From Desulfosudaceae bacterium (GTDB lineage: Bacteria > Desulfobacterota > Desulfobacteria > Desulfobacterales > Desulfosudaceae): a stretch of 32,000 nucleotides of DNA. Below, in pieces: positions 35 to 24,141 of the stretch (positions within the stretch are counted from its first letter, which is position 1; every line of letters starts with the position of its first letter). Location of the stretch: positions 1-32,000 of the forward strand of contig JBKHHL010000004.1 of assembly GCA_046539175.1 (NCBI GenBank), read 5' to 3'. The translations under genes and the position numbers were made by a program. The notes under the pieces are model-generated. The model searched no databases, was not told the DNA's origin, and saw nothing but the letters and a program-made list of their open reading frames with translations.

Positions 35-56
35 TTCATGAAATATCCGGGTTAAG
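35..56 (-). repeat. Dispersed motif copy e (CTTAACCCGGATATTTCATGAA on the minus strand)
   Basis: Near-identical to the copies at 5836-5856, 5553-5573 and 30887-30909. It supplies the last codons (NPDIS) and the TGA stop of rSAM-1. Confidence 0.8.
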
Positions 57-1310
57 GGGCCTGCCGAAGGCCTGGTGGATCAGGTCTCTTCTTCTGGGCC
101 GGTAGCTTTTGTCCGCTTTTTCTTTTCGCATGACAGTCTGGAAGAGTTTCGACATGCGGACCTGCTGGGAATCTTCCCGGTAAAACGTGTCCCAGGCATA
201 AAACAACAGCTCCTGCAGGCGCTCCGGTGCCATCTGTTGCGGCTGATAGACGACCTTGTCCGCCGTATAATCATTCCAGTCATACGAAAAGATTCTTTTT
301 TCCGCGTGAAGCTTTTTAAAAGCGGGCGTATGGGGAAAGGGCGTTAAAACGGTGAATTCAGCCAGATCCAGTTCGATTTCCAGCAAGAAATCAATCAATT
401 CTTTTATAAAATCCTCGGTATGCGAATCCAGGCCCAGCAGAATGGTGCCTTCCACCGCGATGCCATGATCGTGGTAACGCCGGATGCGCTCTTTTATATA
501 ATCCGAGGTATCAAAGACGGCCTGATAAACATACCAGGCGCCGGCCTGCGCGGCCAGGTCCAGTACTTCCGGCTGATCTTCAATGGGATGGCAGCACCAT
601 TTCTTCTTTAATGGAATCATTTCCCGGAAAAGATCTTTTTCCCACCGGGTGTCCTGCGCCAGGGAGTTGTCCACCAGGAACAGCCGGTTGTTATCAATGG
701 CGGCCATTTCCTCGATCACCTTGTCAATCGGGCGGGGACGGAATTTACGGCCACCCAGATACGCCACGGCGCAGGGATAACAGTTGAAACGGCAGCCGCG
801 TGAGGCGTGAACCAGATCCACCATCTGGATGCCCTTGTAGTTGTAGAGCTGCCTTTTAAGAATATCTCTGCGGGCCGTCCCCACCAGTTCGATGGGGGGA
901 TGGTCGGATAGATGATCGTAGACTTTCCGAAGACGATTGTTCCTGAAGTCATCGAACACTTTTTCCAGGTGCCCCTCTGATTCCCCCAGGAAAACGGCAT
1001 CGGCGTGCCGGCTTGTTTCTTCCGCGTGCAGCATGGTGGCAATGCCGCCAAAAATCACCGTAACACCTTTTTGCCGGTATGTATCGGCGATTTCCCAGCC
1101 CCGCTTTACCTGACTTGTCAGCATCATGGAAATACCGACCATATCGGTCGGCCGGCTGAAGTCGATCTCCTCCAGATTTTCATCGACAAATTCAACCTCA
1201 ACGTCCGCCGGCAGGGAAGCGGCCAATACGACCGGACCGTGGGGCGGAAGATGAAATTCCGTCTGGCGGGCCAACTTCGGCCATCGGGGATAAATCAGGG
1301 TAAACTGCAT
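36..1310 (-). CDS. B12-binding-domain radical SAM enzyme (rSAM-1)
   Basis: 424-aa ORF. An N-terminal B12-binding-type Rossmann region (DMVGISMMLTSQ...VTVIFGG) is followed by the radical SAM cluster box SRGCRFNCYPC (CxxxCxxC). The ATG lies 22 nt after the ACP stop and has an AAGG SD. The stop codon lies inside a copy of the dispersed motif. Confidence 0.85.
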   Translation of the reverse strand: MQFTLIYPRWPKLARQTEFHLPPHGPVVLAASLPADVEVEFVDENLEEIDFSRPTDMVGISMMLTSQVKRGWEIADTYRQKGVTVIFGGIATMLHAEETSRHADAVFLGESEGHLEKVFDDFRNNRLRKVYDHLSDHPPIELVGTARRDILKRQLYNYKGIQMVDLVHASRGCRFNCYPCAVAYLGGRKFRPRPIDKVIEEMAAIDNNRLFLVDNSLAQDTRWEKDLFREMIPLKKKWCCHPIEDQPEVLDLAAQAGAWYVYQAVFDTSDYIKERIRRYHDHGIAVEGTILLGLDSHTEDFIKELIDFLLEIELDLAEFTVLTPFPHTPAFKKLHAEKRIFSYDWNDYTADKVVYQPQQMAPERLQELLFYAWDTFYREDSQQVRMSKLFQTVMRKEKADKSYRPRRRDLIHQAFGRPLNPDIS

Positions 1311-1332
1311 GAAATACCTTGCGAAAGAGACT

Positions 1333-1608
1333 TTAGTTTTTCGAAGCGGTCGATTCCGAACGGTTTTCCCGAATATACGCGGTAAGCGTTTCTACGGAAG
1401 CAAAAACCTTTTCACCCAGTTCCTTATTGTCTATAACGATACCATAATCCTGCTCGATCATCATCACCAGCTCAAGGATATCGATTGAATCAATCCCCAG
1501 ACCCTCGCCGACAAGAGGTGCTTTCTCGTCGATATCTTCCGGGGCTATATCCTCCAGGTAGAGGGTATCAATTATTTTTACCTTGATCTCTTCTATGAAC
1601 TCCTGCAT
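1333..1608 (-). CDS. Dedicated acyl carrier protein
   Basis: 91 aa from the ATG at 1608, which has an AAGGG SD 9 nt upstream; the track ORF starts at a TTG at 1626. The phosphopantetheine-site motif is GLGIDSIDILELV (a DSL-type serine). The protein is acidic and has the helix-rich length typical of ACPs. Confidence 0.85.
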   Translation of the reverse strand: MQEFIEEIKVKIIDTLYLEDIAPEDIDEKAPLVGEGLGIDSIDILELVMMIEQDYGIVIDNKELGEKVFASVETLTAYIRENRSESTASKN

Positions 1609-1626
1609 GAAAATTACCCTTGTCAA

Positions 1627-1742: not shown

Positions 1743-2174
1743 ATGGGAAATACTCTTTTTGCCGTTGAAGACTACGTCATCCAGCGCGAACGCATGATGC
1801 TCATTAATGCCATTGATCAGGTTGACGAACAGGGCGCCGTTGCCCGCTCAACCACAACAGATTTGTGGCCTCTTTTTAAAAACGGTGCTATCAATCCGCT
1901 GGTCATTGTCGAACTGGTGGCGCAGACATCCGGGATCAGCTTCCGATGGTCAGAAACGCAAACCCGTCCCGGTGAAAAAGCAGAAGGGAGCGGTTTAATC
2001 GTGGGGCTCAAAAAGGCCGTTTTTTTTGTTGACGCCATTCCGCTGAAAGCAACTGTTGTCACTTGCTCGACAAAAGATTATACCTATATAAATTACGCCG
2101 AATACAGCGGCTTTTCCAAAATCGGGGAGGAAAGACTGGGCGAAGTTACCCTGCAGGTTTTAAGAACAGACTGA
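1743..2174 (+). CDS. FabZ-like hotdog-fold protein (dehydratase partner subunit?), histidine-free
   Basis: 143 aa. LFKNGAINPLVIVELVAQTSG aligns by eye to the FabZ active-site stretch [23 protein letters not shown]. The Glu-x-x-AQ is kept but His is replaced by Ala, and the whole protein contains no His. It sits immediately upstream of FabG. Confidence 0.6.
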   Translation: MGNTLFAVEDYVIQRERMMLINAIDQVDEQGAVARSTTTDLWPLFKNGAINPLVIVELVAQTSGISFRWSETQTRPGEKAEGSGLIVGLKKAVFFVDAIPLKATVVTCSTKDYTYINYAEYSGFSKIGEERLGEVTLQVLRTD

Positions 2175-2198
2175 AAAAATATGAAAGGGGGCCATCCC

Positions 2199-2921
2199 AT
2201 GGGAGAAAAGACAGCCCTGGTTACCGGCGGCGGCCGCGGCATCGGACGGGCGATCTCGCTGGAACTGGCAAACCACGGGTATCATATAACCATCAATTAT
2301 AAATCCGGTCGGGAAGCGGCTGCTGAAACACTCGAAATGATCCGGCAAAACGGGGGTGAGGGAAGCACGGTCGGCTTTGATGTAACCGATCCGGAGGCAA
2401 GCGGGCAAGCGCTTGACGAAATTGCCAAAACCTTCGACATCGAAATTCTTGTCAATAATGCCGGCATCACCGCCGACGGCCTGTTTATCATGATGCCGCA
2501 GAAAGACTGGCAGTCGGTAATCGACACCTCCCTGGCAGGTTTTTACAATGTAACCCGACCGGTAGTCAAAAAAATGCTCCGGAAAAAAACGGGGGCGGTT
2601 GTCTCCATATCTTCAGTTTCCGGGATTGTGGGCAACCGCGGACAAGTCAATTATTCCGCTGCCAAGGCCGGCATAATAGGCGCGAGCCGGGCGCTGGCCT
2701 CCGAGGTGGCGCGACTGGGAATAAGGGTCAACGTGGTGGCCCCGGGACTGATTAAAACGGAAATGATTAAGGACGCGCCGGTGGATGAGATCAAAAAGAT
2801 CATTCCCATGGCCCGCGTCGGCCAACCCGAAGAAGTCGCCAGAGTGGTCCGCTTTCTCTGCTCCGAGGACGCCTCTTATATTACCGGAGAGGTTATTTCG
2901 GTCAACGGCGGTATGGCGTAA
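2199..2921 (+). CDS. fabG: 3-oxoacyl-ACP reductase (SDR, FabG family)
   Basis: [15 protein letters not shown] is a TGxxxGIG cofactor loop. NNAG is present, as is the catalytic YSAAKAG (YxxxK). The start is placed at 2199 (AGGGGG SD) rather than the track start at 2181. Confidence 0.9.
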
Positions 2922-3187: not shown

Positions 3188-3616
3188 ATGAAAAAGAGCA
3201 TGTATGTCTGCGCGATTTTAATGGGTTTTTTGTTTCTGATGGCGTGCAGTACGGCCTTGACCAAGGCGGATATCGATCCCTGGCTGCAGGAGGTCGCCGG
3301 GGACACGGAGGCGTCGATCAATATTGAGGGCCGTTGGCAGGATGTCAAGGCGGATCCCAATAACCCGTTCGGCTGGGGCAAAGGGCTTTTTGAACAGGAA
3401 GGGAATCGGGTCACTGGCTCTCTTGGCGACTACAAGATTGAAGGAAAAGTCAGCGGGGACACGGCTTACCTGGTCTTTCTTTCCGGAGGCGAGGTGTATT
3501 ACACCACTCGCCTGGAAAGACATGAAGACGATACCCTGCGCGGCGACTATTTTCATTCCGACGACAAGGAACAGAAACAGGGCCAGCCAATAGCCCTGGA
3601 ACGGGTTGAAAAGTAA
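3188..3616 (+). CDS. Lipoprotein of unknown function
   Basis: Signal peptide with lipobox (FLFLMAC at the end of MKKSMYVCAILMGFLFLMAC). A strong GGAGGGGG SD precedes it. No recognisable catalytic motif. Confidence 0.6.
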   Translation: MKKSMYVCAILMGFLFLMACSTALTKADIDPWLQEVAGDTEASINIEGRWQDVKADPNNPFGWGKGLFEQEGNRVTGSLGDYKIEGKVSGDTAYLVFLSGGEVYYTTRLERHEDDTLRGDYFHSDDKEQKQGQPIALERVEK

Positions 3617-3752
3617 TCCCGCGGCAAACAAGTTCTCCGGGCATCTGCCATGGGTCCGGGGAGCGATCCTGCCGCTGGTCTGTTTTTTTGCTGAGCGTAT
3701 CCGGCTGTCGGGCTCTTGCGCCCATCCAGCCGGAATTTTAACTTTGACGGGT

Positions 3753-3841: not shown

Positions 3842-4930
3842 TTATCTTTTCAGATGCTCGAAATCGACCCCCCGGGAGCGGGCCCGCATATCAAACCATT
3901 CATCCTCGTCCTGGGGTGGAATCACCTGCTGATCCGCCGCCCTGGCTACCAGGGTAACGGCTTCCTCGGGACAGGCACTAACGCACAGACCGCACCCGAT
4001 ACACTGTGTTTCCGTCACCCGGTACCCCTCATCGGTCTGCCTGACGGCCCCGACCTGACAGCGCTCATCGGCGCAGATGCCGCATTCGGAGCAGAGATCG
4101 GCATCGATAACGGCGTAATAATTGGACCTGATTATTGTTGAGGCATCCAGCTCCCACTCATTGATGACGCGCAGCACACCACAGCAGCAGCCGCAGCAAT
4201 TGCAGATAAAGTCCTGGCCGTTAATCACGTTTCTCGCCAGATGGACCAGCCCGGCCTCCTCCGCCTGGTGCAGTATCTCGTAGGCCTCGGTCTTGCTTAT
4301 CTGCCGTCCCCAGGGATGATCGTCAAACACACCCGGAACCGGCGCCACGCCCAGACAGACCTCCATGGGCTTATCACAGCCCTTGTCGATCATGCGCTTC
4401 TCTTTTTTACAGATGCAGTCGTTGACGGCAAAATCAAGGCCCTTTTCAATGATAGCGGAAACGCGGTCGTAAGGCAGGGCCGACTGTGAATCGACCAGCT
4501 CCCGCTCTATGGGCACAGCTCTCATCAGGGGCGGTTCATGCTTAAAAAACGCCTCCCCGAAAAAGGGCATATAGGCCTCACACAGTTCGATAAACTCCCG
4601 ATCCATGCGATCGATCTGGAATTCATATAAACCGAACACCCAGGGCAGAAGCTTGTATATCTTTACGCCTTTCAGGTTGACGCCGAAGATCAGCCCCCGC
4701 TTCCACATAGTATCGAGTTTTTCATCCAGAAAATCTCTGGGAAGCCCCGTACGCTCGGCAATCTGATCAACATTTTCAAAATTCAACTTTAATCGGCAGA
4801 AGAGCTCCGCCTCTTCCGGTTCGAACATCTTTTTCAGCAGCTTGATTTCCACACCGCTCTCGGTTTTAGGATAACCGTTGGGCAGTGTATCCAGCACTTC
4901 GGCCAGCCGATGATAAACTGAGTCGTTCAT
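3842..4930 (-). CDS. Cys-rich iron-sulfur protein (2x[4Fe-4S] ferredoxin domain at the C-terminus)
   Basis: 362 aa from the ATG at 4930, which has a GGGAG SD 7 nt upstream; the track start at 4978 is a TTG. Cys motifs are CICKKEKRMIDKGCDKPMEVC, CNCCGCCCG, and two ferredoxin boxes, CSECGICADERC and CIGCGLCVSACP. Confidence 0.7.
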   Translation of the reverse strand: MNDSVYHRLAEVLDTLPNGYPKTESGVEIKLLKKMFEPEEAELFCRLKLNFENVDQIAERTGLPRDFLDEKLDTMWKRGLIFGVNLKGVKIYKLLPWVFGLYEFQIDRMDREFIELCEAYMPFFGEAFFKHEPPLMRAVPIERELVDSQSALPYDRVSAIIEKGLDFAVNDCICKKEKRMIDKGCDKPMEVCLGVAPVPGVFDDHPWGRQISKTEAYEILHQAEEAGLVHLARNVINGQDFICNCCGCCCGVLRVINEWELDASTIIRSNYYAVIDADLCSECGICADERCQVGAVRQTDEGYRVTETQCIGCGLCVSACPEEAVTLVARAADQQVIPPQDEDEWFDMRARSRGVDFEHLKR

Positions 4931-5047
4931 GGCGTGTCTCCCTTGGTTTACGGAGTATGGCGAGTCATTTACCGGCAATGTAAACGCCGTCCTGAATAAT
5001 TAGTAATGTATATCATATTTCCGACAAAACACCATCGTATATGAGAA

Positions 5048-5473
5048 TCAGTGGCATGACCGGTCATTGTTTAAGATCCGAACCCTATCGGGCGCGTGTT
5101 TTTCAACAAATATGCGGGCGAGCCATTTCAGCAGCGCTTTGAAATGATCCATCCCGGCCAGGGTCAGTCCAAACATGCACAAAAAATGCGCCACGATCCA
5201 GATAACCGGACCACTTATTATAATCAACAGGGGCTCACGGTTAAAAATGGCAAATACGCTTAAGGCGGTGATTACCGGCCAGCAGATGGCGTAGCTCACA
5301 GCGATACAGACAAGTCCGATGATCATCCTGCCGGAAGGCTTCTGACGGAAAACACTCAGATCGGCTTTTTCTCTTACGGCTTGAGCTACAAATCTGGTTT
5401 TCAATAACTGTCCGGCCAATCTTCTGGAAAAGCTCAAAAAAAAATCTCCTGTTCTGACGCTTGCAGCAGGCAA
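5048..5473 (-). CDS. Small integral membrane protein, unknown function
   Basis: Three predicted hydrophobic helices (IIGLVCIAVSYAICWPVITALSVFAIF, LLIIISGPVIWIVAHFLCMFGLTLAG). The start is uncertain: TTG at 5473 or ATG at 5326. Confidence 0.45.
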   Translation of the reverse strand: MPAASVRTGDFFLSFSRRLAGQLLKTRFVAQAVREKADLSVFRQKPSGRMIIGLVCIAVSYAICWPVITALSVFAIFNREPLLIIISGPVIWIVAHFLCMFGLTLAGMDHFKALLKWLARIFVEKHAPDRVRILNNDRSCH

Positions 5474-5965: not shown

Positions 5966-7345
5966 ATGACGACTCTTGCCGAACAACTGGAGAAAATTGT
6001 TTCAGGTCCGCAACACCCCGGCCACGATTATATTTTATCAAAATACACATATGAAGATATATTTGCAATAGCCGGCACTTTGCAAAAACATTATTTTTCT
6101 TCCGAAAAAGCGGAGTCCATCTGTCTTTGCCTGAAGGACAAGGGTCTCATCGCGGCGGCTCTGCTGGCCGCTCTGACCCGCCCCGTCAAACTCATCATCC
6201 CCCATTTTTTTTCGGAATCCGTTCTTTGGGAAATGCATCAGGCGCACGCGTTTTCAAAGGCCCTGCTGGAAAAACCGGTTGATCTGCCTCCAGAGGTGGA
6301 AATCATTGTACCTGCCCGGTCCGCTTCAGACCGGACAAGGTTTGATAACTCCTTCGTTCGTCGCCCTGACAGCGAAATTGTCAAGCTTTTTACCGGAGGT
6401 TCAACATGTGTGCCCCGGATCTGGTCTAAAACCATCCGCAACCTGTTTGCGGAAGCGATTTATCACCGCGGGAAATTGCAGGTATCGCCGGATGATCGCT
6501 TCGCGGCAACCGTGCCGCCTTTACATATTTATGGTCTGTTATTTTCGGTTCTGACCCCGTTTGTCGCCTCTGCCTCAGTCATTGACGACGTATTGACCTA
6601 TCCCCACGAAATTCAAACCGCCATAAGCCGGAACCGGGCGAGTGTTCTTGTCAGCATCCCCCTGCATTATAAAATGTTGACTGAAATTACCTTCCAGCCG
6701 GGATCACTTCGCCACGCGCTTTCCTCTGCTGCGGAACTCGATACGGCAGTCGGTCGCTCTTTTTATGCCCAGACCGGTCTGGGGATTACGGAAATATTCG
6801 GCTCCACGGAAACCGGCGGCATCGCCTCGCGCCTGCACACTGAAGAAAACAAATATTTCAAACCGTTTGACTGCGTAGGATGGAAAACTACCGGGAATCG
6901 GCTGGCCATCCGCTCTGATTTCATATCACCGGAACTGCCGGTGGATGAAGACGGTTTTTTTATCACCAGCGATCGGGTAAAAATTCCGGCTGACGACGGC
7001 TTCGAACTGGCGGGACGGGCGGACCTGGTCGTTAAAGTGGCCGGCAAGCGGGTGGACCTGAATGAAGTAAAAAACGCCATCACCAGCATTCCGGACGTAA
7101 AAGACGCCGCTGTTATTTATGAAGCATCCGGCAACGGCAGGGGTGGCGAAATCCGCACACTGGTGGCAACCGATATGGACAGCGGGGAAATAAGAAAAGT
7201 CCTCCGGGGAAGCCTGCAAAGCTATGCCGTTCCACGCCGGATCAGAGTCGTCGATAAAATTCCCCTTTCTCCAGCTGGTAAATATGAAAATACCGAGATC
7301 AGAAAATTGTTGGAAGAGTGTTCAAACAACGAAAAACGAAATTGA
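5966..7345 (+). CDS. AMP-dependent synthetase/ligase (aryl- or acyl-acid adenylating enzyme)
   Basis: ANL-superfamily core motifs are present: TGGSTCVPRIWSKT (a degenerate P-loop-like A3), FGSTETGG (A5), and SDRV...GRADLVVKVAGKRVDLNEV (A7/A8), plus the C-terminal PLSPAGK lysine motif. Confidence 0.85.
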   Translation: MTTLAEQLEKIVSGPQHPGHDYILSKYTYEDIFAIAGTLQKHYFSSEKAESICLCLKDKGLIAAALLAALTRPVKLIIPHFFSESVLWEMHQAHAFSKALLEKPVDLPPEVEIIVPARSASDRTRFDNSFVRRPDSEIVKLFTGGSTCVPRIWSKTIRNLFAEAIYHRGKLQVSPDDRFAATVPPLHIYGLLFSVLTPFVASASVIDDVLTYPHEIQTAISRNRASVLVSIPLHYKMLTEITFQPGSLRHALSSAAELDTAVGRSFYAQTGLGITEIFGSTETGGIASRLHTEENKYFKPFDCVGWKTTGNRLAIRSDFISPELPVDEDGFFITSDRVKIPADDGFELAGRADLVVKVAGKRVDLNEVKNAITSIPDVKDAAVIYEASGNGRGGEIRTLVATDMDSGEIRKVLRGSLQSYAVPRRIRVVDKIPLSPAGKYENTEIRKLLEECSNNEKRN

Positions 7346-11141: not shown

Positions 11142-11150
11142 CCGCGCGAT

Positions 11151-15494: not shown

Positions 15495-16409
15495 TCATGA
15501 CACATCCGGGTCAATCGTTTCTCCCCCCGTCGGCTGCCTCCGGCCGAGAAACGGTTCGAAGTGGTACCACTGAAAAGGATATTGGCGCACCGCCTGCTCC
15601 AGCAGACGGGCGTACTGCCGGACGGCCGACCGGGTCTGCTGCCGTCGTGACTGGCGGGAACCGCGACGCAGAAATATCGGCGGATGAATTGTAAAATGAT
15701 AATTTCGCGGACCGGTGCGAAAAGCGAAAAACACGTATATGGGAACGCCCGTGGCATGCGCGAGCGCGTAAGGGGTTTCCGGCAGCCTGACAATGTGATC
15801 CAGAAACTCTGTTTCCACAAAAGACTGCCCGGGATCTCCGGAACGATCACCGGCGATGGACAGGACCCACCCCCGGCGCAGATATCTGACACCCTCCAGA
15901 ATCTCCAGGGGGGAACTCCGGCCCTGGCGACCGGCAATGATTTCCACCCCGTTTTTTTTGAGCGTGTTTTTCTGAATGTCTTCGATCTGCTCCCCGGTCT
16001 TTCGGCTCATGAACAACAGCAATGGAAGACCATGGTTTTTGAGCAGGCGGGCGGCCACTTCCCAGTTGCCGGCGTGAGACATCAGCAGGATGCCGCCGGT
16101 TTTTTTTTCGGCGGCATCAGTAATATGTTCCAGCCCGGCGGCTGTATATTCAATGGCGCCGGGAGATTCGATCAGGTATCGATCAATATATAATTGCGCG
16201 AAGTTATGAAACTGTTTCCAGGCGGACCGGACGGCATACCAGGTCGACCGTTCCGGAAAAAGAGCTTTGTAAAAACGGACGGCGACAGCGACACGGCGGG
16301 GGAAAAACAGAAAATAACCGGTGGCGATTATCCGGACGGCGGTGTAAAGCACCCACAGGCCCCATTTTTCGGAAAGGTACACCAGAAGCTGGTAAAACAG
16401 GTTGATCAT
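15495..16409 (-). CDS. LpxL/HtrB-type (lysophospholipid/lipid A) acyltransferase
   Basis: N-terminal membrane helix, then the HX4E-type acyltransferase box SHAGNWEVAA. Length and layout match late lipid A acyltransferases. Confidence 0.8.
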   Translation of the reverse strand: MINLFYQLLVYLSEKWGLWVLYTAVRIIATGYFLFFPRRVAVAVRFYKALFPERSTWYAVRSAWKQFHNFAQLYIDRYLIESPGAIEYTAAGLEHITDAAEKKTGGILLMSHAGNWEVAARLLKNHGLPLLLFMSRKTGEQIEDIQKNTLKKNGVEIIAGRQGRSSPLEILEGVRYLRRGWVLSIAGDRSGDPGQSFVETEFLDHIVRLPETPYALAHATGVPIYVFFAFRTGPRNYHFTIHPPIFLRRGSRQSRRQQTRSAVRQYARLLEQAVRQYPFQWYHFEPFLGRRQPTGGETIDPDVS

Positions 16410-16419: not shown

Positions 16420-19400
16420 TCATCGACTCAAGTTGCCCCTTTCCGCCAGAAACCATACCTCCTCCCGGCCGGTGCCCGAAGACCGGACCTGGAGAAGCGC
16501 GAAATCGTTTTCCGCCAATATTGTTTTTATCCGGTCCCCGGATCGGTACCAGACGGTCGTCCGGGTGAGCCTGTGACGCAACAGTTCAATCTTTCGATAA
16601 AAGGGGACGCCCTCCGCCGAAGGAATAGTCGCCCGGATAAGCAGCCTGGCTCCCGGCCGCAGTTGCGCCCAAAGATTTTGCAGCGTTGCCTGCAACTGGT
16701 CATCAGACAGGTAATGCATCATATCGAGCATCAGGACCAGGTCCGCCGAAAGTCTGAAATCGGGCAGATCCGGGGCTCCGACCGGAAATATCTCACCCCG
16801 GGAGCCGATAATCCTGGCCGCGATTCTGGCCCTTTCCGCGTCCGGTTCGATGCCGGAAATTTTGATGGCCGGGTCCGCCGCTCTCAGCCAGGCCGCGGTC
16901 ACACCGTATCCACAGCCGAGATCGACAACAGCGGCGGGTTGGCCGATTAAGGCGGGCAGTTCCGCGAACATGGGATCGAGCCGGATTTTAAACCGGGCAA
17001 ACATTCGAGGATATATTTCCAGGTGTTGATACAGTTTGTGAAATCGTTTTCTATGCCTCACCGAACCCGGTTGAACGGGGGTGGCGGAAAATCGGACCGG
17101 CTGGAACAGATATTTGAGAAAAGGAGGCAGAATGGCATACGTGCCGATCATAACAAAGCCGACCCCCAGGACCTGAACCTGCCCCAGACTTTTCATCAGA
17201 TTGTGCTGACCGAAAGCCAGCACCCCGAAACCGATCAGCGTGGAAGTCCCCGCGAGGAATATGGCCATACGGATGTGGGCCTGATAGGGATGACTCTCAT
17301 CCTGGTAACGCTGATAAGATCTTACAATGTATAGTGAATAGTCGAGCCCCATGCCCAGCACCACCACGGACAGCATCAATCCCGGTATGTTCAGCGGCTG
17401 GTCAAGAAGATTCAAGACACCAAGCGTGCATATCATTGAAAAAACAAGCGGCAGCAGCGCCGCCCCGACCAGAACCAGATCCATGAAAAACAGGAGCAGC
17501 AGAGCGAATACACATAAGCTGATAAACACAAGCATTCTGGTAAAAGTTTCGGAAAGAAACCCGCTTATCGCCTGGGAATAAAAAGCAGGGTCGAAAACAT
17601 GCAGTCCCGGCCGTGGTGAATACCGGTGGAAAAAGGATTCCGCGTCATAATGATCGCCCGGGGTTAAAGAAGCCAGCAGCAGCCATGAATCGCTCCCAGA
17701 ATCGCTCCCGGAATCACTCTCGCCCGAGGCATACATTCCGAGAAGGTTATAAAAATCCGGTTTTATGGTCAATCCCTCGGAACAGTCCACCGTCTTTTCG
17801 CTGTAAGTATCCGAAAAAGCGTCGGCGGACAGCCCCATTTCGGCAGCGACCCGCCCGATTCTTTTATGTAAAAGGGCTTGATCATGATCATCCCAGAATT
17901 TACGCCAGGCGGCAGCGTTGTCCCGGCAGCGCCGCTCTCCGGGATAAACCATGGAAGGCAGGAAAGCCTGACTGAGCGTGTTGTTTCTGAGATCTTCCTC
18001 CAGCCGGGCGGTGAGTTCATCGCTGAAGTTTTGAAGGGCTTCCGGATCCGGGGCCTCGGCCATAACGTAAATTCTGTCAAAAAGCTGCTGCCCCCAGACG
18101 TCTGCCATCAGTTTTTCAGCGGCAAGGGTTTCCTGCCGGACCGTGTTGATGGTGGAGATATCCACACTGAAAGTAGGATCCGCGAAAAACACCATCACCA
18201 CAAAAAAAGACAACGCCGCCCCGGCCTTGTATTTTCCTCCCGAAACGGTGAGCCGGTCGACCACTGCCTGCAGTGGCAGTTTTCGAGCCCTTTTGGCCGG
18301 CGGCAAAAAAGGGAAGATAATCGGAAAAAAGGAATGGACGAATAAAAAGGAAAAGGCGATACCGAAAGCCGCGAACTGTCCGATCTCTAAAAGAACCGGG
18401 AAACCGCTGAAGGTCAGCATGAAAAACGCGCTGACCGAAGTCAGGACAGCCAGCAGAGCCACCGCCCGGACCTCTCTGGAAACGTTTTTCCCCCTTGTTT
18501 CATGAGGACGGTCGAGGAACAACAGGTAAGAAATTCCGTGATCCACCGTAATCGCGATAATCGCCCCGCCGAACCCGATAGTCATGATACTGATTGACTC
18601 GTGCCAGATGGAATAAAAGGCCAGGGCGCATATGGTCCCGAAAACAGCCGGAACAAAAGCCAGCAATCCGATATAGGGGCGAGGAAACGACAGCATCAGA
18701 AGACAGGCGATGCCCAGACTGGCAAAAAGGATCGCGTTCCCGGCGTCTTTTTTTGAGGTGGTTTCATTATCCAGCGCGGCCCGGTAGGCGCCGGCCGGCG
18801 TCAGCGTAAAGTCAAACCCGGTATCTTTGTATTCCTGTTCCAGGGCCGCTTTGGTCCGTTCGATCGCGTCATTGATCCGGTATACCTGTTCCGCGCCGGT
18901 GCCCGCGGAGGGGGGGGTGGCGACAAGCAGCAGATGGCGGTTGTCCGGGGATATAAGGTGGCCCTTGTAGAAACGGACATCTTCCGCGGGCGCGATCTGT
19001 TTGAATTTTTCCAGGATAATCCCGCTGATACCCAGGGGGTCCCGCTTAATGAGGCTGGCCTGCCCCATCCCCTCCATGGTATAGAGCCGGGAAAGGTTGT
19101 CCCTGACCCGCTTCTCTAAAACATCCTCCCGCAACAGCGGAGAGATTCTGTTTTCCAGCTCTTCGGCTGTAAGCAGCACGGGGAGATTGAGGGACACGTG
19201 CCTGAACAGTTCGGGGAGCAACTTGTCCATTTCTGCCATGCCCACTTTTTTAAAAACACCGTCGGCCAACAATTCGGCTTTAACAAATTCCGCGGCCTCG
19301 ACCAGCATATCGGGGTTTTTCTGCTCCAGGTGTATGTCTATAAATACCCGGTTCTGATAAGGATGATTCAACAAGACATAAGCACCGTCTGCCATGACCG

Positions 19401-19548
19401 CGTTGCCCCGGGGCAGGGTCTGAATGATATCGGTTTCAAAACGGATACCGAACAGGGCGATAACCATGACAACCAGCAGCAGCAGGCCGGCAAGAACCGG
19501 AAGACCTCTCCGCAGTATCTGTTTCGACAGTGGCGACAACGGCTTCAT
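16420..19548 (-). CDS. MMPL/RND-type exporter fused to a C-terminal class I SAM methyltransferase
   Basis: 1042 aa. There are two bundles of about 6 hydrophobic helices separated by soluble loops, which is the MMPL layout. The C-terminal 215 aa or so (about 16420-17060) carry the SAM motif I VVDLGCGYG and the post-I acidic residue (GIEPD). Confidence 0.8.
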   Translation of the reverse strand: MKPLSPLSKQILRRGLPVLAGLLLLVVMVIALFGIRFETDIIQTLPRGNAVMADGAYVLLNHPYQNRVFIDIHLEQKNPDMLVEAAEFVKAELLADGVFKKVGMAEMDKLLPELFRHVSLNLPVLLTAEELENRISPLLREDVLEKRVRDNLSRLYTMEGMGQASLIKRDPLGISGIILEKFKQIAPAEDVRFYKGHLISPDNRHLLLVATPPSAGTGAEQVYRINDAIERTKAALEQEYKDTGFDFTLTPAGAYRAALDNETTSKKDAGNAILFASLGIACLLMLSFPRPYIGLLAFVPAVFGTICALAFYSIWHESISIMTIGFGGAIIAITVDHGISYLLFLDRPHETRGKNVSREVRAVALLAVLTSVSAFFMLTFSGFPVLLEIGQFAAFGIAFSFLFVHSFFPIIFPFLPPAKRARKLPLQAVVDRLTVSGGKYKAGAALSFFVVMVFFADPTFSVDISTINTVRQETLAAEKLMADVWGQQLFDRIYVMAEAPDPEALQNFSDELTARLEEDLRNNTLSQAFLPSMVYPGERRCRDNAAAWRKFWDDHDQALLHKRIGRVAAEMGLSADAFSDTYSEKTVDCSEGLTIKPDFYNLLGMYASGESDSGSDSGSDSWLLLASLTPGDHYDAESFFHRYSPRPGLHVFDPAFYSQAISGFLSETFTRMLVFISLCVFALLLLFFMDLVLVGAALLPLVFSMICTLGVLNLLDQPLNIPGLMLSVVVLGMGLDYSLYIVRSYQRYQDESHPYQAHIRMAIFLAGTSTLIGFGVLAFGQHNLMKSLGQVQVLGVGFVMIGTYAILPPFLKYLFQPVRFSATPVQPGSVRHRKRFHKLYQHLEIYPRMFARFKIRLDPMFAELPALIGQPAAVVDLGCGYGVTAAWLRAADPAIKISGIEPDAERARIAARIIGSRGEIFPVGAPDLPDFRLSADLVLMLDMMHYLSDDQLQATLQNLWAQLRPGARLLIRATIPSAEGVPFYRKIELLRHRLTRTTVWYRSGDRIKTILAENDFALLQVRSSGTGREEVWFLAERGNLSR
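17687..17722. repeat. In-frame 12-nt tandem repeat x3
   Basis: GAATCGCTCCCA / GAATCGCTCCCG / GAATCACTCTCG, encoding (SDSG)3 in a soluble loop of the exporter. Confidence 0.8.
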
Positions 19549-19551
19549 CCT

Positions 19552-20349
19552 CTATTCCGCGACATCATATTCAACCGCCGCCGGTTTGAAGAAAAACCTT
19601 CGCAGCAGCAGGCTGGAAAAAGTTTTTGAGTTCCTGAAAAAATCTCTCCAGGGACGAAAATGGGATATCCGCTCATGGCGCGGCAGGTAATTGACACCGA
19701 CCGGCACCTCAATAACGGGAATACGATGCCAATGGGCCAGCACCAGAATTTCAACTTCGAATTCAAATCTCCGGGAAGAAACCCCCAGACGCGTCGCTTG
19801 CGGCAGCGGATAGATTCTGAATCCGCTTTGCGAATCGGACATGGCCGGTCCGCCGCAGGCTCTTACCCAGAAATTGGAGAACTTCCGGCCGAACCGGCTG
19901 GTCCATCTGACATTGGGGTTATCCATCCCCATACGATGCCCGGTAATAAAAGCTCCCGGTGATTGTTCGGCAGCCTTCATGAGAACGGTCGCGTCCCGGG
20001 GGTTGTGCTGGCCGTCGGCGTCAAGAGTGATCGCCCAGTCGGCGATTCGAGCGGCCTGACGGAAACCGGTCATCAAAGCGGCGCCTTTGCCCCGGTTCTT
20101 ATTATGGCGCAGGATGTTTATCTCCTGGTAGCGACTGATGCGCCGGCAGGTGTCATCCGTGGATCCGTCATCTACCACGAATATGGGCAGATCAAATTTC
20201 AGGGCTTCGTCAAGGACGCCTTCGACCTGGCGGCTGTGATTGTATACCGGAATAACAATCGCGAACCGTCTTGCAGCACCCGTTCCTGTCCGCCGGTCTG
20301 TCAGTGAAGATGAATGGCCCATGATATCTTTCGATTGATAAAAACGCAT
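19552..20349 (-). CDS. Family 2 glycosyltransferase (Dpm1/ArnC/GtrB-like)
   Basis: FAIVIPVYNHSRQV, VVDDGSTDDT (DxD-type), NRGKGAAL and TLDADGQH are the GT-A fold signatures of polyprenyl-phosphate or lipid glycosyltransferases. Confidence 0.85.
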   Translation of the reverse strand: MRFYQSKDIMGHSSSLTDRRTGTGAARRFAIVIPVYNHSRQVEGVLDEALKFDLPIFVVDDGSTDDTCRRISRYQEINILRHNKNRGKGAALMTGFRQAARIADWAITLDADGQHNPRDATVLMKAAEQSPGAFITGHRMGMDNPNVRWTSRFGRKFSNFWVRACGGPAMSDSQSGFRIYPLPQATRLGVSSRRFEFEVEILVLAHWHRIPVIEVPVGVNYLPRHERISHFRPWRDFFRNSKTFSSLLLRRFFFKPAAVEYDVAE

Positions 20350-20367
20350 TTCAAAAAAATTTTCGGG

Positions 20368-22116
20368 CTAATCGCCATAGCAGGCCACGGCCCACGCGCC
20401 GGGACCGATATGAACTCCCGATGTCAGAGAAAGCGGTTGCAGGACGATTTCGGCTGCCGGAAAAAGCCGTTTCACTTCGGTCAGGACACGCTCTTCCAGC
20501 CAGTGCCGATTATCGGAATATTCAAGCAGGATCAGGGGGGTCGGCTTTCCCCGCAGATCTTCGGCCAGCCGGTCCAGAGCGAAGCGCACCTGGGCTTCGG
20601 TGTGGCGGACGAGACCGACCTTCTCGGCTCCCCGCGCGGTTGGGGTGACGACCGGTTTCAGATGCAGAAAATCACCCACGAACGCGCCGGCTTTCGACAT
20701 GCGGCCGCCTGCCGCCAGGTACTTGAGTTCATCAAGAAAAATATACTCTTTGCTCTTTACTACCGCTCTTTCGGCAAATTCAACGACCTGATCCGGTTCC
20801 CGGGCCCGGGCGGCGTATTCGGCCGTGGCTATGACTGCCCCGGCAAGGCGCCCCGAAGCCGCGCCGGTGTCGATTACAGTAAGACGATTGTCCGGATCAT
20901 GCCGTTTTTTCCACTCCATGACCACCCGGTAGTTGCCAGTGTATACGGAGCCGACGCACAGGTAAAGGAGTCTTTCATGTTGATCCAGAAGCCTCTGGTA
21001 ATGCTGATGACGCTCGAACACGGAAGCCTGTGAAGTCGAGGCGTTGACCTTGTCGCGCATGGCCCGGTAAAGCTCGTCCGGGGAGACGCGTGTCTCGGGA
21101 AGACACCTATCACCGAAGGTGATATAACTGTCCAGAAGCGTTACGCCCAGGCGTCGTGCCAGATCACGGGAGAGGGAACCGGCCGCGTCGGTGATGATAT
21201 GGATCGGACCCGGCCTGGCCGGCAGATTGAAATCTTTTGTCTGTTCGAGCAGGCTGTCCTCAGTCCAGTGGATGATCCGCCCCATTCTTTCGGCTTTCTG
21301 CTTCATTTCCCGGCTGTCACCGGTATGAAGATGAATCTTGGCGTAATCCTGGAACTTATAAGCCATCACACTGTCATCGGATTGTTCAATTTGGCGCAGC
21401 CATTGCTCTGAATCCCCGTCCACGCGCACCACGAAATCGACGCAATATCCGTTTTTTTCCGATTTTTCAAAAGACGGGTCGATCCGGAGCCTGTCGCCGA
21501 ATATATCGTGAACCGAGCGGAATGACGCCTTTTGCGCGAAAGCCTTTTTCAGGAATCCTTCCAGGAACAAAAACATTCCCAGCGCGCCGGCATCGACAAC
21601 ATCGGCCGCCTGGAGTTCCGGCAGCAGGTCCGTGGTTGAATGCACGGCCGCCTCCAGCCGATCCATGACGGGTTCCACAATCTCCGAAGAATCATTCTTT
21701 TCCGGCAGGCTTTCCAGCGCTTCCGCGAATTCATCCAGAACCGTAAGCATGGTCCCGTCCCGGGGCGTACCAACGGCTTGCCGGGCGCCGGCCACCCCGG
21801 CATTTGCCCCCCGGCAAAGCAGGGCCACAGCATCATCACCGAACGCGACACCGGCATCATCACTGGCCAGCAGTTCGGTTATGAACTGTACGGCAATATT
21901 GCCGGCATTACCCCTGGCGGCCAGCAACAACCGCCACCTGATCTCGTTGATGTCGCGGTTGCCAATCTCTCTGAGCGGAGACAGGCTGACGATCAGATTC
22001 CGGCCCGTATCACCGTCGGCCACGGGGAATATATTGATCCGGTCCAGAATGTCCGACCAGGCACTGAGCCTTTCGTAACCGGCGATAAAAGCTTCCGGTG
22101 TTTTTGTAATCATCAT
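20368..22116 (-). CDS. DAK2(DhaL/FakA-type) domain fused to a DegV(FakB-type) fatty-acid-binding domain
   Basis: The N-terminus has FPVADGDTGRNL, RGNAGNI, GTPRDGTMLTV and VVDAGALG (Dak2 nucleotide domain). The middle has GYCVDFVV and KIHLHTGD (FakA/YloV-like). The C-terminal 280 aa or so (about 20368-21215) carry IHIITDAAGSL, STSQAS, AAGGRMSKA, LKPV and GPGAWAV (DegV). Confidence 0.8.
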   Translation of the reverse strand: MMITKTPEAFIAGYERLSAWSDILDRINIFPVADGDTGRNLIVSLSPLREIGNRDINEIRWRLLLAARGNAGNIAVQFITELLASDDAGVAFGDDAVALLCRGANAGVAGARQAVGTPRDGTMLTVLDEFAEALESLPEKNDSSEIVEPVMDRLEAAVHSTTDLLPELQAADVVDAGALGMFLFLEGFLKKAFAQKASFRSVHDIFGDRLRIDPSFEKSEKNGYCVDFVVRVDGDSEQWLRQIEQSDDSVMAYKFQDYAKIHLHTGDSREMKQKAERMGRIIHWTEDSLLEQTKDFNLPARPGPIHIITDAAGSLSRDLARRLGVTLLDSYITFGDRCLPETRVSPDELYRAMRDKVNASTSQASVFERHQHYQRLLDQHERLLYLCVGSVYTGNYRVVMEWKKRHDPDNRLTVIDTGAASGRLAGAVIATAEYAARAREPDQVVEFAERAVVKSKEYIFLDELKYLAAGGRMSKAGAFVGDFLHLKPVVTPTARGAEKVGLVRHTEAQVRFALDRLAEDLRGKPTPLILLEYSDNRHWLEERVLTEVKRLFPAAEIVLQPLSLTSGVHIGPGAWAVACYGD

Positions 22117-22538
22117 TCAAACCCCAGGGAGCGCCTGATCTCATCCGGTATTTTAAACATGGTTTCCATTTCCGGTATTTTGACGGCCACCTGCTCGCTT
22201 TTCCCCCTGGCGCTGATACGGTTTTGCTCCGTCAGCCGGACTTCAAAGCCAATCGTGATTTTGTGACTCACGTCCATCAACGTCGCCCGGCAGATGAATT
22301 CATCCCTGAATCGAAGGGGGAAGACGTGTTTGACTCTCGTCCGGATAATGGGGAATATGAACCGGGTATCCTGATAAACATGGTAAAGATCCACGCCCAG
22401 TTTCCGGAACAGGGCGTCACGGGTTATATCGAAATACTTGTAGTAATTGCCGTGCCACATCACCTGCATGGGATCCATGTCGTGAAACGGCACCTCAAAC
22501 GTGAGCTCACAGCTCTTACTGTCGTCAGTCTTTGTCAT
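22113..22538 (-). CDS. 4HBT/YbgC-type hotdog thioesterase
   Basis: FEVPFHDMDPMQVMWHGNYYKYFD matches the YbgC/4-hydroxybenzoyl-CoA thioesterase N-terminal catalytic Asp motif. 141 aa. Its stop overlaps the next gene's start (ATGATGA). Confidence 0.8.
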   Translation of the reverse strand: MTKTDDSKSCELTFEVPFHDMDPMQVMWHGNYYKYFDITRDALFRKLGVDLYHVYQDTRFIFPIIRTRVKHVFPLRFRDEFICRATLMDVSHKITIGFEVRLTEQNRISARGKSEQVAVKIPEMETMFKIPDEIRRSLGFE

Positions 22539-22572
22539 ATTTTACCCGATTAAACAAAAAATAAAGAGCCTG

Positions 22573-24141
22573 TCACAGCTCGGTAAACATTTCCGATGAA
22601 GCAATTGCTGAGGCAATGTTGGTAATATCCTCATCCATGGGCCTGTCTTCAATGGTCGGCGGCGCGATTTTTCGTATATTTTTTATCAGTCGTCCCAGCC
22701 GGGGCCGTTGATCGATTCTTCCCCGGATCTCACAGGCCTGAACCGCGGTGATCAACTGAATGGCAAGAGTTTTTTCCACCAGCGAACAGGTACGCCTGGC
22801 GTCACGGGCCGCGATGGTTCCCATACTGACCTTATCCTGATTATGTGATTCGGTGGACCGGGAGAAGGACGCCGCCGGCATGGTTCCTTTCAGCGCTTCC
22901 GCCGCGAGAGCGGAAGCGCTGATGGACATGGCTTTGAACCCGTGGTGAAACGGTTTTTCAGGCTCTTCCACGCGTACCAGATCCGCCGGCAACCCCCGGC
23001 TGGAATTGGCATCAATCATCAGCGCCACCTGCCTGTCGGCCATGTCGGCCACCGAGGCCAGAGCCGATTTCAGCGCGTCCATGGCAAAGGCGATATGACC
23101 GCCGTAAAAATTGCCGCCCATGAGAATCCTGCCGGACTGCGGATCGAATAATGGATTATCATTGGCGCTGTTGGCCTCGATTTCGACCCAGTCACGTACC
23201 CACTCCAGGGCATCGGCCAGGACTCCCAGTATCTGAGGAGAACAGCGGATGGAATACGGATCCTGCAAGGTCTCGGGGGAGTTGGTGGAAAAGCTTTCTT
23301 CCGGGCTTTCGGACGCGAGCAGAGAAGCGATTCCTTCGGCGACATATCCCTGACCCGGATGAGGCTTGGCCGTTGATATGGCGGGATGGTAGTGATGGGA
23401 ATTGCCCATCAGGGCGTGGATACTCAAGGCTGTGGCGCAGATGGCGGCTTTCAGTATTTTTTCCGCCCGATCCACGGTCATAACGGAAACACCCGTCATC
23501 ATCGCGGTACCGTTCATCATACCCAACGGCTCTTTGGGGGCAAAATGGTAGGGCCTCAGACCCGCTTCGGCCAGAGCCTCGTCCGCGGGCATCTCCCGGC
23601 CGCGATAGAAGACCCGCCTTTCCCCCATAAGAGCGGCCGCGACGTAGGACATGGGCGTCAGATCACCCGAGGCGCCCACAGACCCTTCTTCGGGCACGAC
23701 CGGCGTTATATGTTCGTTCAGAAAAGCGGCGATTTTTTCCATAAGCTCTGCTGAAACACCGGAATAGCCTCTGGCGAAGCAGATGAGCCGGCATATCATG
23801 GCTGCCCGGGTTTCCTCAATATCAAACGCCCGGCCGGTTCCGCAACCGTGAAAACGGATCAGGTTGGCGCCGTTCTGTCTGGCGACATCGGAGATCATCT
23901 GCTTACCGCAGCATTTACCGAATCCGGTTGTCACCCCGTATACGGGCAGGCTTTCTTCAAGGGCATCCATGAGAATACCCCTTGATTGTTCCATGTTTTC
24001 AGTAAAACCGGCCCGGGTACCGATTTCAATGCGGGCATTTGCCCTGGCTGCGTCCACAATCTGTCGCAATGAAATCTGGGCACCCTCAATAATAAGAGTA
24101 CTTTCATGATCTGGGTCCGTCTGTTTCAATTTATCCTCCAT
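22573..24141 (-). CDS. MIO-dependent aromatic amino acid ammonia-lyase (HAL/PAL/TAL family)
   Basis: YGVTTGFG, the MIO-forming triad in GSVGASGDLTPMSY, NGTA, QDPYSIRC and SANDNP are all present. It is the first gene of the 13-kb operon. Confidence 0.9.
   Translation of the reverse strand: MEDKLKQTDPDHESTLIIEGAQISLRQIVDAARANARIEIGTRAGFTENMEQSRGILMDALEESLPVYGVTTGFGKCCGKQMISDVARQNGANLIRFHGCGTGRAFDIEETRAAMICRLICFARGYSGVSAELMEKIAAFLNEHITPVVPEEGSVGASGDLTPMSYVAAALMGERRVFYRGREMPADEALAEAGLRPYHFAPKEPLGMMNGTAMMTGVSVMTVDRAEKILKAAICATALSIHALMGNSHHYHPAISTAKPHPGQGYVAEGIASLLASESPEESFSTNSPETLQDPYSIRCSPQILGVLADALEWVRDWVEIEANSANDNPLFDPQSGRILMGGNFYGGHIAFAMDALKSALASVADMADRQVALMIDANSSRGLPADLVRVEEPEKPFHHGFKAMSISASALAAEALKGTMPAASFSRSTESHNQDKVSMGTIAARDARRTCSLVEKTLAIQLITAVQACEIRGRIDQRPRLGRLIKNIRKIAPPTIEDRPMDEDITNIASAIASSEMFTEL

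Follow-up and report, generated by a model that had tools for sequence, protein, structure and literature searches.

What might a sulfate-reducing bacterium be making with a gene set that looks like a pigment-lipid pathway but carries three B12-binding radical S-adenosylmethionine (radical-SAM) enzymes among its chain-building genes? The question is raised by positions 36–24141 of contig JBKHHL010000004.1 (GenBank assembly GCA_046539175.1) from a Desulfosudaceae bacterium; the whole stretch analysed, the first 32,000 nucleotides of the contig on the forward strand, is called the window below. The reading that we prefer, with a probability of roughly 0.6, is that the locus directs the synthesis of a radical-SAM-tailored outer-membrane glycolipid of the aryl polyene (APE) type. 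It rests on homologies, conserved synteny and intact catalytic motifs; from these we infer the substrate of the lyase, the polyene nature of the chain, the radical-SAM reactions, the order of lipid assembly and the cellular location.

When all 18 Ape proteins of Escherichia coli CFT073 were compared directly with the window, ten of them (ApeC, E, H, J, K, L, M, O, P and Q) had counterparts there. An earlier, sequence-only reading had taken the locus for an isolated APE cluster ‘with departures’. It belongs instead to a large conserved family of anaerobes in which the radical-SAM enzymes are systematic. The host reduces sulfate and belongs to the Desulfobacterales. That it is anaerobic, as had been supposed, is supported because the relatives of the left-most cluster gene (rSAM-1) are nearly all from Desulfobacterota, the nearest (98% identity) lying in a Desulfosudaceae metagenome-assembled genome (MAG). 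The stretch holds 21 tightly packed genes, and each of those named in the sequence-only reading was recovered in its place from the open reading frames (ORFs) and from Pfam and NCBIfam scans. From left to right, the features are:

1–41, minus strand: start of an ORF without assignment (first 13 codons MNFFDYSGLTNKL), overlapping the rSAM-1 stop (ATGA)
36–1310, minus strand: rSAM-1, B12-binding radical-SAM enzyme (PF02310 and PF04055)
1333–1626, minus strand: ApeE-type acyl carrier protein, ACP (PF00550; NF006617)
1743–2174, plus strand: ApeP-like hotdog protein, His-free (family profile, hhalign)
2181–2921, plus strand: FabG/ApeQ-type ketoreductase, KR (adh_short_C2, 192 bits)
3188–3616, plus strand: small lipoprotein, lipobox LMAC (no Pfam or NCBIfam family match)
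3842–4978, minus strand: Cys-rich protein with two [4Fe-4S] motifs (Fer4 family matches)
5048–5473, minus strand: small membrane protein (homologues adjoin MMPL::MT in relatives)
5966–7345, plus strand: ANL adenylate-forming ligase, ApeH counterpart (PF00501 and PF13193)
7376–8857, plus strand: rSAM-2, B12-binding radical-SAM enzyme, distantly HpnJ/BchE-like (PF04055, 92 bits; PF02310, 63 bits)
8900–9691, plus strand: MipA/OmpV-family outer-membrane protein (PF06629, 144 bits)
9743–10384, plus strand: LolA-like lipid carrier, ApeL counterpart (PF03548, 52 bits)
10377–11141, plus strand: conserved lipoprotein lipo254, lipobox VSAC (follows LolA across the family)
11151–11957, minus strand: membrane-anchored NodB-family deacetylase (PF01522, 104 bits)
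11954–13312, minus strand: rSAM-3, lipid biosynthesis B12-binding/radical SAM protein (TIGR04072)
13309–15465, minus strand: fused ketosynthase::chain-length factor, KS::CLF (ApeO::ApeC; PF00109/PF02801/PF13723)
15495–16409, minus strand: LpxL/HtrB-type acyltransferase (PF03279, 63 bits)
16420–19548, minus strand: MMPL/RND transporter with a C-terminal class-I SAM methyltransferase domain, MMPL::MT (PF03176 and Methyltransf_23/12/25)
19552–20349, minus strand: family 2 glycosyltransferase, GT2 (PF00535, 80 bits)
20368–22116, minus strand: FakA::DegV, a single-chain fatty-acid-kinase-like protein (Dak2, FakA-like_M and DegV)
22113–22538, minus strand: 4HBT-fold thioesterase, ApeK counterpart (PF13279)
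22573–24141, minus strand: aromatic amino acid ammonia-lyase (or aminomutase) dependent on 4-methylideneimidazol-5-one (MIO) (PF00221, 512 bits)

One minus-strand operon runs from 24141 down to 11151, in the order MIO lyase, thioesterase, FakA::DegV, GT2, MMPL::MT, LpxL-type acyltransferase, KS::CLF, rSAM-3 and NodB. Its gaps measure −4 to 34 nt if rSAM-3 is started at Met42 of its long ORF, which is probably the true start (the relatives are called at 452 aa).

Chain-building enzymes and their family

The sequence-only reading had staked its assignment on the affiliation of three proteins, the KS, the ACP and the hotdog protein, which would have counted against it had they grouped with primary fatty-acid synthase (FAS) or polyunsaturated fatty acid (PUFA) synthase. 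Because the KS half, the ACP and the hotdog protein all fit APE proteins better than models of primary FAS or PUFA synthase, the grouping found was the APE one, and positions 36–24141 are, by their predicted proteins, a cluster of the APE type. The KS half of the fusion retains Cys139, His269 and His304, and in the CLF half an Asp replaces the active-site Cys, as it does in ApeC; PF13723 falls on the C-terminal half. Identity with ApeO is 38% (E 3e-62). Among solved structures, the KS half scores nearly equally with 6QSP_A (194.3 bits), which was checked and is the ApeO orthologue, and with 9S5H_B (193.6 bits), probably the amxFabF2 protein of anammox bacteria; E. coli FabF and FabB reach 145 and 102 bits. 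The FabF model TIGR03150 gives 275 bits against a cutoff of 494, and PfaA 65 against 1010. The third structure is 6KXD_A (189 bits), assigned to Iga11/Iga12, the polyene-forming KS/CLF pair of the ishigamide type II polyketide synthase; that system belongs to an actinomycete amide pathway that has no lipid-anchoring, export or radical-SAM genes.

The ACP passes NF006617 (74.8 bits, cutoff 70), fails the AcpP model TIGR00517 (35 versus 70) and shares 48% identity with ApeE of E. coli (E 2e-22); as called on public contigs, it starts so as to give 91 aa (1333–1608). For the KR, 47.5% identical to ApeQ, the top NCBIfam match is FlxB (318 bits, below the cutoff of 340), and the FabG model NF004200 is passed at 307 bits (cutoff 273). 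The hotdog protein has not one His residue and no match in Pfam, even at E ≤ 1. PF22817 (ApeP-like) is its precomputed public annotation, the best solved match of its family profile is 6QSR_B (checked to be the ApeP orthologue), and hhalign places the family with E. coli ApeP at 97.8% probability (E 8e-13). Presumably it partners a dehydratase without being catalytic itself. Among the Pfam matches of the ORFs in 36–24141 there is no enoyl reductase family, for which reason conjugated double bonds would be expected in the chain.

The ape clusters (apeA–R) of E. coli and Xenorhabdus doucetiae are likewise highly reducing type II systems of the KS/CLF type with no enoyl reductase, and have in common with the window a thioesterase, a GT2 with an acyltransferase, and export through MMPL and LolA. 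Differences are that, in the window, KS and CLF are fused, ApeJ is divided between the GT2 and LpxL-like proteins, and a methyltransferase domain is joined to the transporter, where ape has a separate ApeB. To this the window adds three B12 radical-SAM enzymes (in the family, up to six radical-SAM enzymes), FakA::DegV, NodB, MipA and the MIO lyase, and its host is a strict anaerobe. The APEs of E. coli and Xenorhabdus reportedly start from 4-hydroxybenzoate. The chemistry of APE lipids and the roles of ApeJ, ApeD, ApeM, ApeL and ApeN have been described (bioRxiv 10.1101/2020.12.19.423268).

Hundreds of Desulfobacterota genomes and metagenome contigs contain members of the family, as do a few Syntrophales, spirochaete and purple sulfur bacteria. 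Its additions are three to six radical-SAM enzymes (one of which passes TIGR04072), FakA::DegV and NodB and, in the subfamily of the window, the MIO lyase. The architecture was taken from tblastn maps of approximately 160 related loci; L-numbers here stand for related loci. Around homologues of the left-most gene, rSAM-3, LolA, lipo254, KR, hotdog protein and ACP all recur in 91% of genome loci that have full 10-kb flanks (31 of 34), so that their grouping is not due to chance; metagenome loci repeat the same modules. Three canonical modules can be described. The first is rSAM-b ← rSAM-a ← ACP2 ← ApeI-like dehydratase ← rSAM-3 ← KS::CLF ← ACP1; the second is hotdog → KR → LolA → lipoprotein → rSAM-1; and the third is rSAM-4 ← PlsC-like ← KS ← ACP3 ← LpxL-like ← GT2 ← FakA::DegV ← thioesterase. 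In a variant, rSAM-1 is followed by ANL → FakA::DegV → GT2 → LpxL → ACP3 → KS → PlsC → rSAM-4, carried for example by a Desulfobulbus MAG and by the purple sulfur bacterium Thiorhodococcus. The three ACPs differ from one another and each has radical-SAM neighbours of its own; the window has one ACP where relatives have three. Counterparts of ApeR, ApeD and ApeI occur in the clusters of relatives only. The subfamily of the window (L004, L005, L009, L010, L017, L083, L089 and L163–165) is distinguished by having MMPL::MT, LpxL, KS::CLF, rSAM-3 and NodB in one operon.

Cultured carriers are Desulfosarcina widdelii PP31, Desulfatitalea alkaliphila, Desulfosalsimonas propionicica and Thiorhodococcus mannitoliphagus. 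The last (strain DSM 18266; L053) is a purple sulfur gammaproteobacterium with the whole family cluster (rSAM-1 at 76% identity), likely acquired by horizontal transfer from Desulfobacterota. Nine loci (e.g. L094:13035–14519) hold, between the LpxL-like and GT2 genes, an ORF of 494 aa that bears a GxGxxG FAD motif at its N-terminus and that the window does not have; this may be the phytoene-desaturase-like gene of the clusters that Rattray described in 2009 (see below). APE clusters are already known, as are, from bioinformatics since 2009, ‘ladderane-like’ clusters in Deltaproteobacteria, and our literature search found no paper that characterises the family, names its product or links APE with ‘ladderane-like’ clusters.

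Starter supply, radical-SAM enzymes and lipid assembly

The 13-kb operon opens with the lyase gene, which a gap of 34 nt separates from that of the thioesterase. Ranked against solved structures, it stands closest to a tyrosine aminomutase (272 bits), followed by cyanobacterial phenylalanine ammonia-lyase (PAL), tyrosine ammonia-lyase (TAL) and, last, histidine ammonia-lyase (HAL; 230 bits). It falls below the HutH cutoffs (424 versus 539 bits), with an equal score for the BagA-type TAL model. GASGD (the MIO triad), FHGCG and HNQDKVS are kept across its 120 closest homologues (59–95% identity), of which the last two motifs form a private signature. In seven of seven contexts examined, including a Smithella genome, a Desulfohalobiaceae genome and a spirochaete, homologues of 60–95% identity lie inside the same cluster family, next to thioesterase, FakA::DegV, GT2, MMPL::MT or LpxL-like genes. 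The Tyr/Phe-type ranking, the failure of HutH, the signature and these seven contexts are the grounds on which we predict a dedicated cluster enzyme for an aromatic amino acid. The selectivity pair is Phe-His, in which the His aligns with His93 of SgTAM. By comparison with RsTAL and PAL, it is presumably the Phe that holds the classical switch position, with the His one residue further on; for this reason the His was not taken to be the residue that switches TAL.

The ANL ligase is 27% identical to ApeH over 333 aa (E 2e-22), and its second-best NCBIfam match is the 4-coumarate-CoA ligase model TIGR02372 (95 bits, far under the cutoff). Homologues with 36–42% identity directly follow rSAM-1 in other family members. 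In a Spirochaetes MAG (JAFGBT010000019.1, positions 10001–15129; L166), we observed a set of only four genes, lyase → FakA::DegV → GT2 → LpxL-like, with no ketosynthase. Because this set has no synthase, FakA::DegV perhaps acts directly on the product of the lyase.

CxxxCxxC is present in rSAM-1 (at residue 173), rSAM-2 and rSAM-3. The most conserved gene of the family is rSAM-1, for which the scans gave 413 relatives in species-representative genomes and 529 on metagenome contigs; the source contig was in neither set. Identity is 74–98% among the best 80 of the former and the best 80 of the latter, and the best single match is 98% in the genome scan and 84% in the metagenome scan. Median identities over L003–L162 are approximately 77% for rSAM-1, approximately 50% for KS::CLF and rSAM-3, and 25–40% for the lipoprotein, hotdog and LolA proteins. 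More than 6000 database homologues bear generic names only, and the pattern suggests an unusually constrained B12 radical-SAM enzyme that has yet to be given a name. The scores of rSAM-2 are under the cutoffs for both HpnJ (178 bits) and BchE (141 bits), and orthologues with 64% identity occur in the Desulfatitalea clusters L018 and L046. The third enzyme, rSAM-3, passes TIGR04072 (short name rSAM_ladder_B12) at 405 bits (cutoff 360); its closest solved relative is the Trp C2-methyltransferase TsrM (6WTE, 104 bits). It adjoins KS::CLF throughout the family and here overlaps the KS::CLF stop by 4 nt. Going by its short name, TIGR04072 would cover anammox proteins; a literature search found no mention of the model.

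The protein encoded at 3842–4978 (378 aa) has a weak winged-helix-like N-terminus, Cys-rich motifs (CICKK...GCDKPMEVC and NCCGCCCG) and two [4Fe-4S] motifs. No homologue was found in the approximately 160 related loci; it is a cluster insertion in the lineage of the window only. It is probably a passenger or, failing that, would supply the radical-SAM enzymes of this lineage with electrons.

The genes for lipid assembly and export correspond to those of ape in part. The GT2 protein matches residues 8–232 of ApeJ (34% identity, E 5e-31) and the LpxL-like protein residues 323–548 (24%, E 1e-7); since these are the N- and C-terminal halves, ApeJ is split into two genes here. The best NCBIfam matches of GT2 are PpgS, AglJ and ArnC, polyprenyl-phosphate sugar synthases, all under their cutoffs, and, together with NodB, which follows rSAM-3 in the subfamily of the window, it presumably resembles the ArnC/ArnD pair. 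The thioesterase is 30% identical to ApeK (E 1e-24), the MMPL part 23–33% identical to ApeM, and the match of the LolA-like protein to ApeL is weak. Relatives keep the MMPL::methyltransferase fusion at 40–63% identity. The N-terminal half of FakA::DegV resembles the FakA structures 7RM7 and 7W7H and the C-terminal half DegV/FakB structures; the gene always adjoins GT2, and FakA::DegV-GT2-LpxL is a fixed module.

Among the smaller genes, the lipoprotein at 3188–3616 is a subfamily-specific cluster member, with homologues of 49–60% identity between LolA and lipo254 in L004, L005, L009, L010, L017 and L089. The membrane protein at 5048–5473 is an occasional cluster companion (33–41% homologues beside MMPL::MT in L078, L143 and L156); it was considered as a candidate for ApeG, to which it has no similarity. 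Neither this protein nor that of 3842–4978 has a place in the pathway set out by the sequence-only reading. Lipo254, as a candidate for ApeN/DUF3261, was rejected on sequence (hhalign 1%). It has three database homologues only, and an identical copy lies on a 21.7-kb Logan contig. Two observations in relatives concern FakA::DegV. In a Desulfohalobiaceae cluster (L165:12187–13769), an IS200/IS605 element (Y1 transposase and OrfB/TnpB) lies between the thioesterase and FakA::DegV genes. Beside the cluster of the 98% relative (L003:7328–7942, minus strand) stands a gene for a PlsY-like acyl-phosphate:glycerol-3-phosphate acyltransferase, recognised by motif only, which is worthy of note because FakA::DegV would yield an acyl-phosphate.

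Missing genes and cluster borders

According to tblastn, the window holds no ApeI-like dehydratase, ACP2, rSAM-a/b, ACP3, ApeR-like KS or PlsC-like (ApeD-like) acyltransferase. Pfam and tblastn bear out the sequence-only reading in that there is no stand-alone KS and no His-bearing dehydratase in the window; its description of a ‘complete logic’ holds for the domains that it listed, all of which are present, but not for the dehydratase, KS and acyltransferase just named. In relatives, the 414-aa KS is 38.5% identical to ApeR (E 1e-99), the 120-aa ApeI-like dehydratase scores 28.6 bits with PF22818 (cutoff 28.5), and the PlsC-like protein is the ApeD counterpart.

Where, then, does the cluster end? 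The sequence-only reading had supposed a cut at the left edge. In its favour, the 98% relative L003 has a PaaK-like ligase, PlsC, KS, ACP3 and PlsY after rSAM-1, and this makes further cluster genes to the left of the window plausible. Three relatives with the operon order of the window point the other way. Their ApeI-like dehydratase and ACP2 genes lie divergently upstream of the lyase, joined in L165 by rSAM-a/b and two stand-alone KS genes, and rSAM-1 is their last cluster gene. The window and L003 part exactly at the rSAM-1 stop codon, and two independent short contigs with an identical rSAM-1 end within approximately 10 bp of it; an exact look-up of rSAM-1, by which we sought to extend the window leftward, gave only these two contigs of 2.5–3 kb, both ending at the junction. 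The ATGA-coupled minus-strand ORF that had been read at position 39 is present, with 13 codons visible, and this 13-residue peptide has no match in the related loci. The junction may be strain-variable, or a repeat may lie just left of the window, and the copy in the window may be incomplete.

On the other side, unrelated genes sit beyond the lyase in both the window and its 95% relative (L169), which makes the lyase a stable right border in this lineage. In both, the first of these is a translationally coupled operon (24426–26665, plus strand in the window), divergent from the lyase, for an EEP-family phosphoesterase, an unassigned 225-aa protein and a glycerophosphodiester phosphodiesterase. 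It is absent from other family members; a tie to the turnover of lipid head-groups is conceivable. A PaaK-type phenylacetate-CoA ligase gene (28125–29872, minus strand; 627 bits against a cutoff of 646), beside a gene for a protein with a pair of ACT domains, belongs to ordinary aromatic-acid metabolism, outside the cluster. Scanning the window with Rfam gave no match, riboswitches included, and a scan for promoters and terminators nothing informative.

The product and what it would mean

The genes can be arranged into a pathway as follows. The MIO lyase would convert tyrosine or phenylalanine into an aryl-acrylic acid, which the ApeH-like ligase would load on to the ApeE-like ACP, with FakA::DegV as a possible alternative activator. 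The ApeO::ApeC fusion and the ApeQ-like KR would extend the chain, and dehydration would fall to the ApeP-like hotdog protein together with a catalytic ApeI-like or FabZ partner encoded elsewhere, so that conjugated double bonds would accumulate. The three B12 radical-SAM enzymes, each encoded beside a carrier-protein or synthase gene, would then tailor the carrier-bound chain without oxygen. Their reaction is most likely C-methylation of sp2 carbons, which is also our best guess for rSAM-3, with radical C-C chemistry as the alternative. The thioesterase and FakA::DegV would release and re-activate an acid, the latter by phosphorylating a free acid, whether that released by the thioesterase or the aryl acrylate itself, so that it could re-enter lipid assembly. 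GT2, the LpxL-like acyltransferase (together equivalent to ApeJ) and NodB would build an amino-sugar lipid head, in which NodB would deacetylate the hexosamine, and attach the chain. Finally, the MMPL::methyltransferase, the LolA-like carrier, the two lipoproteins and MipA would carry the lipid to the outer membrane.

Several points weigh against this account. No chemistry exists for any member of the family. ApeA, ApeB, ApeG and ApeN have no detectable counterpart in the 18-protein comparison or by hhalign. The resemblance of the CLF half to ApeC is weak (26% identity, E 4e-5), with the chain 9S5H_C about equal; scores against solved structures (ApeC 19 bits, 9S5H_C 26 bits) are too low to discriminate. 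With its catalytic dehydratase, ApeR-like KS and ApeD-like acyltransferase outside the window, this copy may need genes elsewhere or may be defective. The Phe-His pair of the lyase is not known as a canonical pair of TAL, PAL or HAL, and does not decide between tyrosine and phenylalanine. Finally, most loci centred on rSAM-1 show no lyase, and in only approximately 15% is the ANL ligase within 10 kb; given this rarity, the aryl starter is perhaps a trait of a subfamily.

The last point leads to the alternative that survives best, which is possible although we think it unlikely. The main product would not be an aryl compound but a radical-SAM-modified acyl chain (conjugated, polyunsaturated, branched or cyclised), with lyase and ligase providing an optional aromatic decoration in the subfamily; such a chain would be similar to the second, non-aryl acyl chain (C26:5) in APE lipids, or to what the ‘ladderane-type’ FAS clusters of anammox bacteria and Desulfotalea make. 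Most rSAM-1-centred loci indeed run thioesterase → FakA::DegV → GT2 → LpxL with no lyase, and the three ACPs with their separate radical-SAM neighbours, the passing of TIGR04072 by rSAM-3 and the synthase-free spirochaete set fit this alternative too. So does the synteny between the ‘ladderane’ clusters of Kuenenia and clusters of Desulfotalea psychrophila, for which C31:8 and C31:9 hydrocarbons but no ladderanes were reported (Rattray 2009; PMC2649909). Against it stand the place of the lyase at the head of the operon, 34 nt from its neighbour, its linkage to the cluster in all seven contexts, and the presence of the ApeH-like ligase and the ApeE-like ACP. The two readings are compatible, since in Xenorhabdus an aryl polyene and a conjugated fatty acid occur together in the APE lipids (bioRxiv 10.1101/2020.12.19.423268).

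The clusters of PMC2649909 contain radical-SAM genes, a polysaccharide deacetylase, a SAM methyltransferase, a glycosyltransferase, an acyl-CoA-ligase-like protein and an MMPL-like protein, and, equated by gene content, the family of the window would be the ‘ladderane-like’ FAS/radical-SAM cluster of Desulfotalea from 2009. It is probably also the source of the ‘ladderane’ clusters that antiSMASH calls in Desulfobacterota (PMC9902471).

A true ladderane pathway, making concatenated cyclobutanes outside anammox bacteria, is far less probable than either reading above. A TIGR04072 protein, an active KS with an inactive partner (amxFabF2/amxFabFmut) and a dedicated ACP are common to the window and the anammox/Desulfotalea clusters, and anammox cluster I combines a KS/CLF-like heterodimer with a B12 radical-SAM enzyme and an ACP (PMC10139942; bioRxiv 10.64898/2026.05.19.726425). 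These clusters, however, have FabZ and a phytoene-desaturase-like oxidoreductase, neither of which was found in the window by Pfam or tblastn, whereas the MIO lyase and LolA export of the window go unmentioned in the papers on them (the comparison is with published descriptions, not with the Kuenenia sequences). The remaining genes of the window map one-to-one on APE genes, no ladderanes were found in D. psychrophila, whose clusters are syntenic with those of Kuenenia, and the role of the anammox cluster itself in ladderane synthesis is unproven.

It is just as improbable that the locus is an ordinary APE or flexirubin cluster, with the radical-SAM enzymes, FakA::DegV and NodB as unrelated neighbours. 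The APE core homologies would suit it, and the flexirubin clusters of Bacteroidota also have a MIO lyase that gives an aryl-acrylate starter; the best NCBIfam matches of the KR and the LolA-like protein are FlxB and LolA2_flexi. It is contradicted by the synteny, with rSAM-1 and rSAM-3 accompanying an APE-like core in 91% of full-flank loci, and by the fixed FakA::DegV-GT2-LpxL module. The flexirubin models all fail in the window (FlxA on the lyase 301 bits against 700, FlxB 318 against 340, LolA2 111 against 125), no DarA or DarB (dialkylresorcinol) family turned up in the general Pfam and NCBIfam scans, and the window differs from flexirubin clusters in having radical-SAM enzymes. A locus for primary fatty-acid synthesis or a PUFA synthase can be set aside: the KR passes NF004200 and the KS also matches FabF models, but ApeO-type proteins give the KS higher scores than FabF or FabB do, the ACP falls below the cutoffs for AcpP, PfaA is nowhere near its cutoff, FabD, FabH, FabI and FabZ are absent, and genes for export and glycolipid synthesis lie among those of the synthase.

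What would a radical-SAM-tailored APE-type glycolipid mean for these organisms? No family of biosynthetic gene clusters in Gram-negative bacteria is held to be more widespread than that of the APE clusters, whose product is credited with protection against reactive oxygen. That strict anaerobes conserve a version rich in radical-SAM enzymes calls into question whether such protection is the sole role, and predicts new lipid chemistry. It also suggests that the unexplained ‘ladderane’ clusters of Desulfobacterota are perhaps of the APE-lipid type, having one B12 radical-SAM family in common with anammox bacteria. Because cultured organisms carry the family, the function of the TIGR04072 enzyme, an open point in ladderane biosynthesis, becomes experimentally approachable. 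More speculatively, and at rather long odds, the radical-SAM enzymes, above all that of the TIGR04072 type, may carry out oxygen-independent C-C chemistry on a carrier-bound conjugated polyene, for which sp2 C-methylation (giving a carotenoid-like branched aryl polyene) and ring closure are the candidates. Were that so, the family would be the first tractable system for the ‘ladderane-type’ B12 enzyme, and the most widespread pigment-lipid pathway of Gram-negative bacteria would have a chemically distinct anaerobic branch.

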